64,000 bases of DNA, taken from sequence record OQ689735.1; one strand, written 5' to 3'. Under the pieces are notes generated by a model that was not told the DNA's origin, searched no databases, and saw only the letters and a list, made by a program, of their open reading frames with translations. Of the stretch, positions 10,879 through 19,176 are shown piece after piece (position 1 is the first letter of the stretch; each line of letters opens with the position of its first letter). This stretch comes from Escherichia phage 4E10. A program made the translations under genes and the position numbers.

Positions 10879-11625
10879 TTATCCTCGGATAAGTTTAAAA
10901 ATTGAACAATTTAGCGGATATCCTCTTTTCAGTTTAAGTTTATCAATAAAAGACAAGTTTTGATACCGCTCTACACCTTGAATAATTTTATCACACATAT
11001 CATATTGCATTTCTGCTTCTGACAACTTTTTCACAATTTTCCAATCCGAGCCTTTAAGAAGAACGTTCAGTTTAACAACTTCAGCGCCTTCTGCTATGCG
11101 AGAACCATCAATACGAGCTTTAAGCGCTATAATTCTTAGCTTAATGTCAGAGGTCTGTTTTGATTTAGAAAGCTGAGAAATGTGTTCAATTCGGTTTTCA
11201 CGTTTTTTCTGTATAGCTTTAATTTGATTATAAGTCTTTTTGATTTTAGCCCATTTCTTTTCATCTAAATTTAGTTTATGAACTTTTTTCGCAGATGAAC
11301 GACCAATTCGCAGAGCAAATAAATCACGCTTTTCAATCAACTCTTCTAAAGTATAATCAGAACGAAATGTATTATACTTTTTCTTTACTGCAATAACATT
11401 CCCTTTAATGTATCCAACGTTATTATCAAAACGTTCTAATGATAATTTCTCTCCTTCAATACGATTATCAAAAGGTTCTCCTGAATAGGCACAAACTTTT
11501 TGATCTAAAATATTCTTAATGTAATTGAAGTCTAAGTTAAAATCTTTAGAACGTCTTTTTGCAGATGCCTGAGTATGCTCTAGACGACGTTTAATTTTAC
11601 GAATTTGATTATTAGACAGCTTCAT
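10879..11625 (-). CDS. srd: Srd-like protein
   Basis: 248-aa basic ORF at the T4 srd position; synteny and size only. Confidence 0.5.
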   Translation of the reverse strand: MKLSNNQIRKIKRRLEHTQASAKRRSKDFNLDFNYIKNILDQKVCAYSGEPFDNRIEGEKLSLERFDNNVGYIKGNVIAVKKKYNTFRSDYTLEELIEKRDLFALRIGRSSAKKVHKLNLDEKKWAKIKKTYNQIKAIQKKRENRIEHISQLSKSKQTSDIKLRIIALKARIDGSRIAEGAEVVKLNVLLKGSDWKIVKKLSEAEMQYDMCDKIIQGVERYQNLSFIDKLKLKRGYPLNCSIFKLIRG

Positions 11626-11661
11626 ATTTTTCTCACATCTTACGGATGGTTAACTACTTAT

Positions 11662-11690
11662 ACTATAACATTTTACTTCAGCTTGTAAAC
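11662..11690 (-). promoter_or_regulatory. T4-type early promoter
   Basis: GTTTAC, 17 bp, TATAGT on minus strand upstream of srd. Confidence 0.5.
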
Positions 11691-11702
11691 AACTTTATGA
11701 AA

Positions 11703-11729
11703 AATGCTTTAAAACTTTCATGGTATAAT
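11703..11729 (+). promoter_or_regulatory. candidate MotA-dependent middle promoter on the plus strand
   Basis: Plus strand reads AAATGCTTTA, 12 bp, TATAAT; perfect middle-promoter geometry pointing into the 3-prime end of modA. Confidence 0.35.
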
Positions 11730-11746
11730 GAATCTAAGTCCTTCCA

Positions 11747-12349
11747 TTATAGATTAAATCCTTCAAAATCAAGAGTATAGACAGTGTATGTTGAATACTT
11801 TTTATACTCGTATCTATCCGCAATTCTAAATACACTTCCAGCTGGTATCATTACTTCTTGTTCATCTGAAACTAATTCCATATTACGATAACGGTGGCTA
11901 TCTGGAAACTTAAAACTTGGGCTATATTCTTTACAACGTAAAGCTTTTATAGCATACTCCTGGAAATTAAATACCATAGGAGCTTTGAATTCAAAAATAA
12001 CTTGTGTATTGTATTCTAATCCAGAAGCAAAATGTAGAGCTATATTTTTATCATATGAAGCTGATACTACTTTATCAAATGTAATAATATCAATTCCTTG
12101 ATTTAACACCTGTTTAGTCTCAACTGGAACACCTCTCCAAAGAGGTTTATCGTTTGGAACCAAACGAGATTTGATTATTTCATTTAACCAAGAATGATCG
12201 TCTGGCTTATTAGTAATACAATGAATTAAAAGTTCAATTTCGGATAAATTAAATCCTTCAGAAAGTAATTCTTCACGAATAGAAGCACGCACAGATGCAT
12301 CCATTGATTTGATTTTAAAATCTTTTAATTGCATTGCTGAATATTTCAT
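11747..12349 (-). CDS. modA: ADP-ribosyltransferase ModA
   Basis: 200-aa ORF; ART-like R / S-x-S / E-x-E elements; size and order match T4 modA. Confidence 0.7.
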   Translation of the reverse strand: MKYSAMQLKDFKIKSMDASVRASIREELLSEGFNLSEIELLIHCITNKPDDHSWLNEIIKSRLVPNDKPLWRGVPVETKQVLNQGIDIITFDKVVSASYDKNIALHFASGLEYNTQVIFEFKAPMVFNFQEYAIKALRCKEYSPSFKFPDSHRYRNMELVSDEQEVMIPAGSVFRIADRYEYKKYSTYTVYTLDFEGFNL

Positions 12350-12969
12350 TCAACTACCTCAATATCATACACTTTAAATGTTCCAAATGAATCGTGTAAT
12401 TTTTCTTTTGAAATAGAAGTTATTTTATACTTTCCAATTGGAATCATCCATTCTTGTTCATGTGCAATCATCATTAAGTTATCAGTACGTTCTGAATCTA
12501 ATCCATCAGTATCTTCATATGTATACTTAAACTCAGTATTAGGAGAAGAAAGTATAATATCGCTGATATGGTCAGAGTAATTAAAAGCTTTATCAGTTTT
12601 TAAGCGAAGTATTGTGTCAGTGAAATATTCAGCATAAGAAAAAGAACACGCTGTATGCAAACTAGTAGTAAATGAATCTACCCTGTTCGTTGAAAACACA
12701 TCTCCAACCTGTAAATTTTCTATTATTTCTTTTGTTGTTTTTGATATACCACGATATAATTGATAAGGCGATTTAGTTAAATGCTTTTTAATGATTTTAT
12801 TCAACTGTCTGTGAAGAGCTTCATTCTTTTTGGCTTCCATACATTGCCAAAGAATTGATTGTTCAAAATCAGTAAACTTTTCACAAACCTTTTTATACAT
12901 ATCATGTTGAAAATCAACGCTTTCAGCTTTTATAGATAACTGTTCAACATCTGCAAGATTAATAATCAT
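12346..12969 (-). CDS. modB: ADP-ribosyltransferase ModB
   Basis: 207-aa ORF, paralog of adjacent modA (YRGIS, HEQEWMIP). Confidence 0.7.
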   Translation of the reverse strand: MIINLADVEQLSIKAESVDFQHDMYKKVCEKFTDFEQSILWQCMEAKKNEALHRQLNKIIKKHLTKSPYQLYRGISKTTKEIIENLQVGDVFSTNRVDSFTTSLHTACSFSYAEYFTDTILRLKTDKAFNYSDHISDIILSSPNTEFKYTYEDTDGLDSERTDNLMMIAHEQEWMIPIGKYKITSISKEKLHDSFGTFKVYDIEVVE

Positions 12970-17406: not shown

Positions 17407-17571
17407 TTACTCTTCTTTTTCTTTAGATTCCTCTTTTTTCTTTTTAGGAATCTGTTCAGGACCTTTATTTACTACAGCACCTGACGTTGTTCCAGTAGAG
17501 ATATTTTCAGGACTACTACCTGAATCTCCAGCGACCATATCTTCTTTGATAAATTCTTTATATGTTTTCAT
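17407..17571 (-). CDS. mini-ORF with internal-protein-like N-terminus
   Basis: 54-aa ORF below cutoff; N-terminus MKTYKEFIKED resembles the IP capsid-targeting sequence MKTYQEFIAE; low-complexity tail. Confidence 0.4.
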   Translation of the reverse strand: MKTYKEFIKEDMVAGDSGSSPENISTGTTSGAVVNKGPEQIPKKKKEESKEKEE

Positions 17572-17614
17572 ATTAACCTCTATTCATAAAAGCATTAAAA
17601 ATTTGGTCATCAAT
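17569..17614. repeat. 46-bp direct repeat, copy 1
   Basis: 43/46 identical to 17927..17972; spans the 61.1 stop and next-gene RBS/ATG. Confidence 0.7.
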
Positions 17615-17929
17615 CGATGGAATAGCAACTTTTTCTGCATCATTTAGCAAATCATTAATTTCATCAGATAGCATAACACATGTACCTTTATTTCCTGTAA
17701 TTGTTACTGCACAATTACGAACGTTTTCTTTATTAAATTTTAGGTTAATATTTTCGTAATGAAAATCCTTTAATGCTGAATATATTTTTAAAATAAAATT
17801 GTCTTTTACTACAATAAACCCAACCTCACTATTAAAACATGGTTCATGGAAACTGTAATAAACCTTTTCATCTATAAAATCGTATGAAATTTTTTCCATT
17901 TTTAAATATGAAAATTCAGAACTATACAT
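17573..17929 (-). CDS. hypothetical protein (T4 61.1 position)
   Basis: 118-aa ORF; C-terminal tail SIDDQIFNAFMNRG shared with next gene. Confidence 0.55.
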   Translation of the reverse strand: MYSSEFSYLKMEKISYDFIDEKVYYSFHEPCFNSEVGFIVVKDNFILKIYSALKDFHYENINLKFNKENVRNCAVTITGNKGTCVMLSDEINDLLNDAEKVAIPSIDDQIFNAFMNRG

Positions 17930-17972
17930 ATTAACCTTTATTCATAAAAGCATTAAAAATTTGATCGTCAAT
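17927..17972. repeat. 46-bp direct repeat, copy 2
   Basis: Near-identical to 17569..17614. Confidence 0.7.
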
Positions 17973-18572
17973 AGAAACTTTTACTTTAGGCTGTTCTTCA
18001 AACGGTAATTCATATCCACATATTACAATTTTGTGATCGATACCAAAATACACAGAAGCAATATGATTAATATTATTTTCAGTGAAATCTAAATCAACAT
18101 CAATATCTTTTTGACTAACGCTCAAAGGATAATTAATACGAATAATTCGATTATCTTTAACAAAGATTCCACCGACATACTCTGTGTTGCGTTTAAAGTT
18201 TACACGTTTCCTAAATGAAAAATATTCAGGTTCTTTATGAGCCCGACTCATAGGACATAATGAATAGCTAGAATAAGAGATGTCAAATCCTACACCTTCA
18301 ATATGAACCAACGCGTCATGATTAAACCAATTATAATCATATGCCAAATCCATTATATTGTAATATGTGAAAGGCACCGGATTAACATCATATATTGTAC
18401 CTTTAAAATCTGCCCAGGCAACGATTTCATTATCTTTAACAATTACAAAAATTGTGCCAATAAGATATCCACGGTTATTTTCATCAGGCGTTATATTATA
18501 ACATTGTGCATCAGGAAATTTACCGTATTTAAACGGTGGATTTTTGTGCATATAATAAATCATATTATTCAC
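17931..18572 (-). CDS. hypothetical protein (T4 61.2 position; possible AdfA-like)
   Basis: 213-aa ORF; positional equivalent of T4 61.2. Confidence 0.5.
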   Translation of the reverse strand: MNNMIYYMHKNPPFKYGKFPDAQCYNITPDENNRGYLIGTIFVIVKDNEIVAWADFKGTIYDVNPVPFTYYNIMDLAYDYNWFNHDALVHIEGVGFDISYSSYSLCPMSRAHKEPEYFSFRKRVNFKRNTEYVGGIFVKDNRIIRINYPLSVSQKDIDVDLDFTENNINHIASVYFGIDHKIVICGYELPFEEQPKVKVSIDDQIFNAFMNKG

Positions 18573-18918: not shown

Positions 18919-19176
18919 TTATTTTAAAACTTCTGCGTAATCACATGTTACAAACTGTTTCTCTAACTTGTCGATTTTACGAAAATACCTTTTACACTGA
19001 CGAATCTGTCGCTTCGTAGGACGTACAGCAAACTTAATAAATTCCACTCGACCAAATGGAGGACTTTCTTCTGCTGGAATATCTAGCACCAATTCCCACG
19101 TATCTGCAATAAGTGCTTTGAATTGAGTATTTTTCCTGACGTTATACGGAGTAGGTTTAAATAAAACAATATGCAT
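18919..19176 (-). CDS. hypothetical protein (T4 61.4 position)
   Basis: 85-aa ORF. Confidence 0.5.
   Translation of the reverse strand: MHIVLFKPTPYNVRKNTQFKALIADTWELVLDIPAEESPPFGRVEFIKFAVRPTKRQIRQCKRYFRKIDKLEKQFVTCDYAEVLK

Follow-up and report, generated by a model that had tools for sequence, protein, structure and literature searches.

A candidate MotA-dependent middle promoter at the modA–srd junction of T4-like phages is directed antisense to modA

Results and Discussion

Gene Context of the srd–modA Spacer

The DNA analyzed here, referred to below as the window, is a 64,000-nt stretch of the genome of Escherichia phage 4E10 (OQ689735.1). The locus comprises the genes dda, dda.1, srd, modA, and modB, all of which lie on the minus strand of the window, as they do in T4. 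According to the ORF list and the T4 annotation, modA (11747–12349, minus strand) encodes the 200-residue ADP-ribosyltransferase of the RNA polymerase α subunit, while its upstream partner, modB (12346–12969, minus strand), encodes an ADP-ribosyltransferase of 207 residues. Across a 121-bp intergenic spacer from modA lies srd (10879–11625, minus strand; 248 residues). The spacer contains the plus-strand site that is the subject of this study, and about 500 Tequatrovirus genomes match the 1.1 kb around this site at 90–98% identity. T4 is identical to the window across the whole site, with window position 11736 corresponding to T4 position 11897. The motA and asiA genes are located outside the 64-kb window, and T4 has both.

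The spacer also carries the early promoter of srd (11662–11690, minus strand), which was identified in our σ70 scan with 10 of 12 matches and consists of GTTTACA, 16 bp, and TATAGT, with a TG before the −10 element. In the window this promoter and the plus-strand site are arranged back-to-back, which puts the MotA box of the latter roughly at −40 to −60 relative to the srd promoter.

Architecture of the Plus-Strand Site

The plus-strand site begins with the MotA box AAATGCTTTA (11702–11711), which matches the published consensus (a/t)(a/t)(a/t)TGCTT(t/c)A (PMC2988021) at 10 of 10 positions. It is followed by the 12-bp spacer AAACTTTCATGG (11712–11723) and by a perfect σ70 −10 hexamer, TATAAT (11724–11729). 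The preliminary description had placed here a perfect MotA box at the right distance from a consensus −10, pointing rightward into the 3′ end of the leftward-transcribed modA. The sequence and the ORF positions bear out the match, the spacing, and the orientation; only the start of the site, which had been put at 11703, was one base late, as the box begins at 11702. An extended −10 element, which lies beyond that description, is also present. The last three bases of the 12-bp spacer, TGG (11721–11723), supply the TGn of TGnTATAAT, with the TG at 11721–11722 and TGGTATAAT spanning 11721–11729. The predicted transcription start, an A (11736–11737), is located 7 nt after the −10 hexamer, a placement derived from the −10 position and from identity with the T4 uvsY promoter, PuvsY (see below). 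The modA stop codon (11747–11749, minus strand) is located 11 nt beyond this A11736. A σ70 −35 element is absent: the hexamers 16–18 bp upstream of the −10 (AAATGC, AAAATG, and AAAAAT) each match TTGACA at no more than one of six positions, and the σ70 scan of the window lists no plus-strand promoter at the site.

These properties are those of the T4 middle promoters, in which the MotA box is centered near −30 and the consensus is (a/t)(a/t)(a/t)TGCTTtA located 12 ± 1 bp from TAtaaT, with a TGn in about half of the cases (PMC2988021); the 12-bp spacing of the modA–srd site falls within this rule. In promoters of this class, AsiA remodels σ70 region 4, MotA binds both the box and σ70, and transcription starts ~7 nt past the −10, while those that bear a TGn keep basal activity (PMC2988021). 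At the level of sequence, every feature of a MotA-dependent middle promoter is present at the modA–srd site in its best form.

The Site Is the Best Middle-Promoter Match in the Window and in the T4 Genome

A two-block weight matrix was trained on the 58 published T4 middle promoters, which were extracted via their start sites. All 58 align on the minus strand, and the best spacer alignment is 12 bp in 35 of them. The modA–srd site scores 22.6 bits with this matrix, the top score on either strand of both the window and the whole 169-kb T4 genome. PuvsY, the best of the 58 known promoters and itself a member of the training set, lies below it at 21.7 bits, and the runner-up plus-strand match in the window scores 15.0 bits. 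The motif exceeds chance: among 300 simulated 64-kb windows generated with a first-order Markov model, none reached 22.6 bits and 1.7% reached 20 bits. A loose pattern, TGCTTYA-N11-13-TANNNT, occurs at 14 sites in the window compared with 2.15 expected, and 10 of these are on the minus strand.

The region had been described as otherwise unidirectional, and this holds. The T4 genes from 12 to 77337 are all annotated on the minus strand, and the late-promoter octamer TATAAATA is found zero times on the plus strand of the window (four occurrences in total, compared with 10.8 expected). This shortage suggests that stray late promoters, which would be antisense, are selected against in the early region. 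Weight-matrix matches of at least 15 bits in the window number 22 on the minus strand and one on the plus strand. Thus, with no plus-strand TATAAATA and a single plus-strand matrix match at this threshold, stray antisense promoters appear to be avoided in this region.

The Antisense Motif Is Kept in Seven Tevenvirinae Genera

Divergent modA–srd junctions were fetched by tblastn with Srd, as a search for related loci, also with Srd, returned near-identical phages only. An antisense MotA box, a 12–13 bp spacer, and TATAAT are found at the modA–srd junction in seven Tevenvirinae genera, Tequatrovirus, Mosigvirus, Dhakavirus, Karamvirus, Gelderlandvirus, Jiaodavirus, and Tegunavirus, in which Srd identity falls as low as 31%. 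The sites score 15.2–22.6 bits over the seven genera, while the best sense-strand matches in the same spacers reach at most 9.7 bits. On the antisense strand, the Mosigvirus sites score 21.4 bits in RB69, 21.4 bits in S143_2, and 19.6 bits in ESCO47; the remaining values are 17.7 bits for MX01 (Dhakavirus), 15.2 bits for ZX13 (Karamvirus), 18.6 bits for STML-198 (Gelderlandvirus), 16.5 bits for KpV477 (Jiaodavirus), and 20.4 bits for fHe-Yen9-01 (Tegunavirus). Of 495 Tequatrovirus records, 492 show 95% identity or more over a 59-nt region.

Alignment of eight phages representing the seven genera shows that the only invariant columns are TGCTTT, TATAATG, the T at −3, and the G at +3. The sequence of the spacer and both flanks vary, while the length of the spacer stays at 12–13 bp. 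The TGn is not kept in all genera. Because the MotA box is always kept and the TGn is not, the alignment points to MotA dependence as the conserved property. MotA homologues, checked per genus and host group, were found in 1,141 phage records with a host distribution that mirrors that of Srd and takes in the host groups whose phages have the motif. In the one Krischvirus modA–srd spacer analyzed there was no comparable motif, the best match scoring 7.1 bits; the RB49 group has been reported to lack motA and middle promoters (PMC1524935). Collectively, the cross-genus comparison supports a selected plus-strand promoter.

Where the antisense motif lies with respect to the srd early promoter depends on the genus. 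The two promoters are arranged back-to-back in Tequatrovirus, Mosigvirus, and Dhakavirus, their starts being separated by ~75–83 bp. In Karamvirus and Gelderlandvirus, where the intergenic spacer is 85–87 bp, the srd promoter (TTTACA/T, 17 bp, TAGAAT) instead faces the antisense promoter and the predicted starts of the two coincide. In Jiaodavirus and Tegunavirus, an srd promoter was not recognizable at the junction. What is constant in all seven genera is the internal architecture of the site, its placement at the modA/srd boundary, and its orientation toward modA. Given this variable placement, the antisense site is not an accessory of the srd early promoter.

A related arrangement was seen in the Acinetobacter phage Abraxas (Lazarusvirus), in which TGCTTTA, a 14-bp spacer, and TGGTATAATGGTTCTA occur in antisense orientation with no adjoining modA. 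This site, with a spacer outside 11–13 bp and no modA, was not counted as an orthologue. In the Abraxas stretch analyzed (~1211–1360), the TGCTTTA is part of the perfect palindrome TAAAGCACGCGTGCTTTA, which is located upstream of an srd-like gene and presents MotA-box cores on both strands.

Similarity to the uvsY Promoter and Related Sites

Between −15 and +14 (11721–11749, plus strand), the modA–srd site and the T4 uvsY/oriF promoter share 27 of 29 bases, among them an uninterrupted stretch of 21 nt, TGGTATAATGAATCTAAGTCC. In T4, neither the 18-mer TATAATGAATCTAAGTCC nor the 11-mer AATCTAAGTCC is found anywhere but at the modA site and at PuvsY, and the mapped PuvsY start is the same A in TATAATGAATCTAAGTCC. 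PuvsY, a strong middle promoter established by experiment and the promoter of oriF [also called ori(uvsY)], has in common with the modA–srd site the MotA box, a 12–13 bp spacer, TGgTATAAT, and the start TCTAAGTCC. Among sites close to known genes, no others score as high with the weight matrix as these two. In contrast, PuvsY lies on the minus strand, drives uvsY, and primes replication, whereas the modA–srd site lies on the plus strand and has neither a downstream ORF nor reported origin activity. P34i (oriG) and the oriE RNA offer a second comparison. These are T4 middle/early promoters, situated inside late genes, whose transcripts are antisense to the local gene; however, they are on the minus (counterclockwise) strand and antisense to late genes, whereas the modA–srd site is on the plus strand and opposes immediate-early genes. 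A+T richness downstream of the start was set aside as a marker of origins: P34i has 38% G+C and many non-origin promoters have 28% or less, so the measure is uninformative.

A second unlisted plus-strand site is located at T4 75965–76001, in the gene 3/gene 2 spacer, and its 21.8 bits make it the second-best match in the T4 genome. It is antisense to the late genes 2 and 4 and shares TGGTATAATGGGTCTAAGTCCCTTCCATT with the modA site and PuvsY. Its RB69 orthologue lies at 79262 (plus strand) and is listed, as Pm:79256 (+), only in the computed table of 2006. PnrdC.7 is similar over the same shared stretch. Judging by sequence, the PuvsY-like sites appear to be either copies of one strong promoter cassette or optimal versions of it that arose by convergence.

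The 58 T4 middle promoters identified by experiment do not include the modA–srd site; the nearest of them is Pdda.1 (T4 11138), on the opposite strand inside srd. No promoters are annotated in the T4 records NC_000866 and AF158101. An orthologous site in RB69, however, is listed as "Pm:12081" (+) by Nolan et al. (2006), Additional file 4 (PMC1524935). That entry is likewise on the plus strand in the RB69 srd–modA spacer (11996–12148) and scores 21.4 bits with our matrix, but it is a single line in a table of computed coordinates, with a low HMM score (7.9, "1 bp ins"), and was neither discussed nor tested. By dRNA-seq, 150 start sites have been reported for T4, of which 22 are antisense (bioRxiv 10.1101/2024.04.04.588121). 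Among the papers covered by our literature search, none describes a transcript from the modA–srd site. The site is, as a candidate recognized by its motif, a previously uncatalogued plus-strand antisense member of the well-known middle-promoter class.

The Predicted Antisense Transcript

Transcription from A11736 would produce an antisense RNA, presumably non-coding, that covers the 3′ portion of modA and for which 11736–12167 (plus strand) is a tentative extent. The terminator scan revealed two weak hairpins with T-rich tails (12131–12146 and 12150–12167), ~400 nt downstream of the promoter; neither the scan nor folding yielded a convincing terminator. The plus-strand RNA would contain more C than G, with a GC skew of about −0.2 over 11700–12000. 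Since such an RNA would be untranslated and C-rich, its termination by Rho is plausible. Only an antisense RNA of more than 600 nt would cover modB.

Two other kinds of product were considered for this stretch and discarded. In a comparison of nine phages, no downstream ORF was conserved in position or sequence that might represent a small protein gene. A structured small RNA was likewise dropped, as the +1 to +125 segment and the hairpin region fold no better than shuffled sequences (z −0.6 and −1.6).

The OOP RNA of phage λ is a short antisense RNA of 77 nt with a defined terminator, which starts just downstream of cII and overlaps its 3′ end. The modA–srd promoter resembles OOP in being placed right after the stop codon of an early regulatory gene and aimed back into that gene. 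Unlike the 77-nt OOP RNA with its defined terminator, the modA–srd transcript has no convincing terminator and its effect on the target is putative. The modA–srd promoter further differs from that of OOP in that it would be activator-dependent, by σ appropriation.

Proposed Function and Alternative Explanations

The explanation that we favor, and consider probable, is that the site is a genuine, maintained MotA/AsiA-dependent extended −10 promoter, which produces a non-coding antisense RNA over modA and possibly modB and likely serves in early-gene switch-off. The sequences show the motif, its rank, its conservation, and its orientation; transcription from the site, its dependence on MotA, the length of the RNA, and the regulatory effect are what we infer from them. 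In this mechanism, the MotA box would replace the −35 element; with σ70 region 4 remodeled by AsiA and MotA present ~2–4 min after infection, RNA polymerase would start at A11736 and run rightward, into the path of oncoming early transcription. This would yield a non-coding RNA that is complementary to the modA 3′ end, and also to modB if it is not terminated. The TGn element may in addition permit some MotA-independent firing. Polymerase collision, pairing of the antisense RNA with the modB–modA mRNA, or both would then lower immediate-early ADP-ribosyltransferase expression at the early-to-middle switch. In some genera, the antisense promoter overlaps the srd early promoter, so that binding to the two would be mutually exclusive and they would be in direct competition. 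ModA has been described as highly toxic and needed just for an early burst. Deletion of modA leaves early shut-off unchanged (PMC2988021), a result that has no bearing on the control of modA itself.

An unlikely alternative is that the MotA/RNA polymerase site works mainly as DNA, with a bound or abortive complex that blocks read-through from modA into srd-dda.1-dda or occludes the srd promoter. The location of the site exactly at the modA/srd boundary in all seven genera would suit such a role, as would the coinciding predicted starts in Karamvirus and Gelderlandvirus, which would exclude joint binding of two polymerases. A perfect extended −10 followed by G, as at this site, would favor a very stable open complex. 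Yet PuvsY, with the same −10 and start region, is a productive promoter. This DNA-level role also overlaps the antisense-promoter explanation, since transcriptional interference is common to both, and the two are inseparable by sequence.

Alternatively, the conserved bases could serve the minus strand, as an UP element or upstream region of the srd promoter, as part of the srd leader, or as the 3′ end or terminator of the modB–modA mRNA, in which case the promoter-like appearance of the plus strand would be a by-product. In the window and in T4, the position of the MotA box, at about −40 to −60 relative to the srd early promoter, is indeed the one expected of an A/T-rich UP element. In addition, our reading of the primer positions in a published modB–modA circularization assay, in which one primer is near the modA 3′ end, suggests that the mRNA ends nearby. 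We nevertheless regard a minus-strand role as quite unlikely. In three genera the motif lies upstream of the srd −35, in Karamvirus and Gelderlandvirus it is inside the srd leader, and the two genera in which the srd promoter is unrecognizable keep the antisense motif all the same. Moreover, TATAAT is as invariant as the box, yet has no known minus-strand role at about −70, and the 12–13 bp spacing is kept while the sequence of the spacer drifts. Neither scanning nor folding detected a significant minus-strand hairpin or terminator at the site.

The near identity of the site to the oriF promoter from −15 to +14 raises the further idea that the site provides the promoter of an R-loop replication origin of the type seen at oriF (uvsY) and oriG (gene 34), at which the hybridized transcript would prime a rightward leading strand. 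In both oriF and oriG, a middle promoter is combined with an A+T-rich unwinding element (PMC3016281). The G+C content is 28% over the 100 bp that follow the modA–srd start, compared with 30% at PuvsY, and antisense transcripts from origins have precedents in P34i and the oriE RNA. However, genome-wide origin mapping found only oriA, C, E, F, and G, with none reported at 11.9 kb (PMC3016281), and the annotated oriA, at T4 16763 close to soc and gene 56, is ~5 kb away. An origin at this site therefore seems very improbable.

Finally, the site could have arisen by chance or be a remnant of a duplicated promoter cassette that no longer has a function. Promoter-like words are common in an A+T-rich phage (the σ70 scan gave 25 sites compared with 21.8 expected), and middle-promoter cassettes get copied, as in the 49-nt P61-type repeat around an extra ORF at 17569–17975. 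We consider this explanation very improbable, given that zero of 300 simulations reached the score of the site, that the motif is kept in seven genera while the surrounding spacer diverges, and that the plus strand is otherwise nearly free of promoter-like sites. Thus, we consider an origin primer, a DNA roadblock, a minus-strand function, and a relic each less likely than an antisense promoter.

Implications for Early Gene Control

Middle transcription in T4 is the model for σ appropriation, and the 58 promoters of its catalogue have been viewed as running in one direction and as activating. The site that fits the consensus best in the whole genome is missing from that catalogue, has the opposite orientation, and is maintained across seven genera. 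If the antisense promoter fires, MotA would act negatively as well, on specific early genes, via antisense or convergent transcription. If it does not fire, the site would be a useful test case for the silencing in vivo of a perfect middle promoter. The mechanisms that stop T4 early gene expression were described as largely unknown in a 2010 review (PMC2988021). Located in non-coding DNA, the site offers a concrete and easily mutated handle, one that bears on the mechanism of early shut-off and equally on how toxic ModA is limited to a short burst. More speculatively, σ appropriation may be used for repression also. A MotA promoter behind modA would then be a timer, conserved in seven genera, that shuts the immediate-early ADP-ribosyltransferase operon and, in some genera, the srd early promoter when early transcription gives way to middle transcription, and together with the T4 75965/RB69 79262 site it would form a small class of "reverse" middle promoters taking part in early shut-off. 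We put this broader proposal forward tentatively, as an idea that is more doubtful than the promoter assignment on which it builds.

Additional Features of the Region

Several other features were observed in and around the spacer. A hairpin in the srd leader (11636–11648; minus-strand RNA CAUCCGUAAGAUG) lies just upstream of the srd ribosome-binding site and is kept across genera. Its stem changes on both sides, from ATC..GAT here to GTC..GAC in Mosigvirus, Dhakavirus, and Jiaodavirus, while the loop (TTACG on the plus strand) is the same across those genera. In Jiaodavirus this hairpin falls within the antisense promoter, separating its MotA box from its −10.

A minus-strand intrinsic modA terminator overlapping the site was sought and discarded, as none appeared in the scan and the region folds no better than shuffled sequences (z +0.36). 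The primers given for a circularization assay in the dRNA-seq preprint (bioRxiv 10.1101/2024.04.04.588121) place the 5′ end of a "modA-modB" transcript upstream of modB and its 3′ end shortly past modA, near the antisense promoter. No intrinsic terminator was detectable near that 3′ end.

The orthologue of the T4 middle promoter Pdda.1 is located inside srd at window position 11012 (minus strand) and consists of AAATGCAATA, 12 bp, and TGATAAAAT, with a score of 15.8 bits. Its presence indicates that middle-time expression of dda.1-dda would be served from inside srd; the plus-strand promoter is ~700 bp upstream of it and would fire in the opposite direction.

Farther along the window, a 49-nt direct repeat occurs at 17569–17617 and 17927–17975, the two copies being 92% identical and 358 bp apart. 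Each copy carries a P61-type middle promoter (TAATGCTTTT, 12 bp, GGTTAATAT) on the minus strand, at 17597 and 17955. The copies flank an extra ORF of 118 residues (17573–17929), and in the T4 scan the promoter sequence was found once only, at 19156. The repeat looks like a promoter cassette that was duplicated along with the insertion of a gene.
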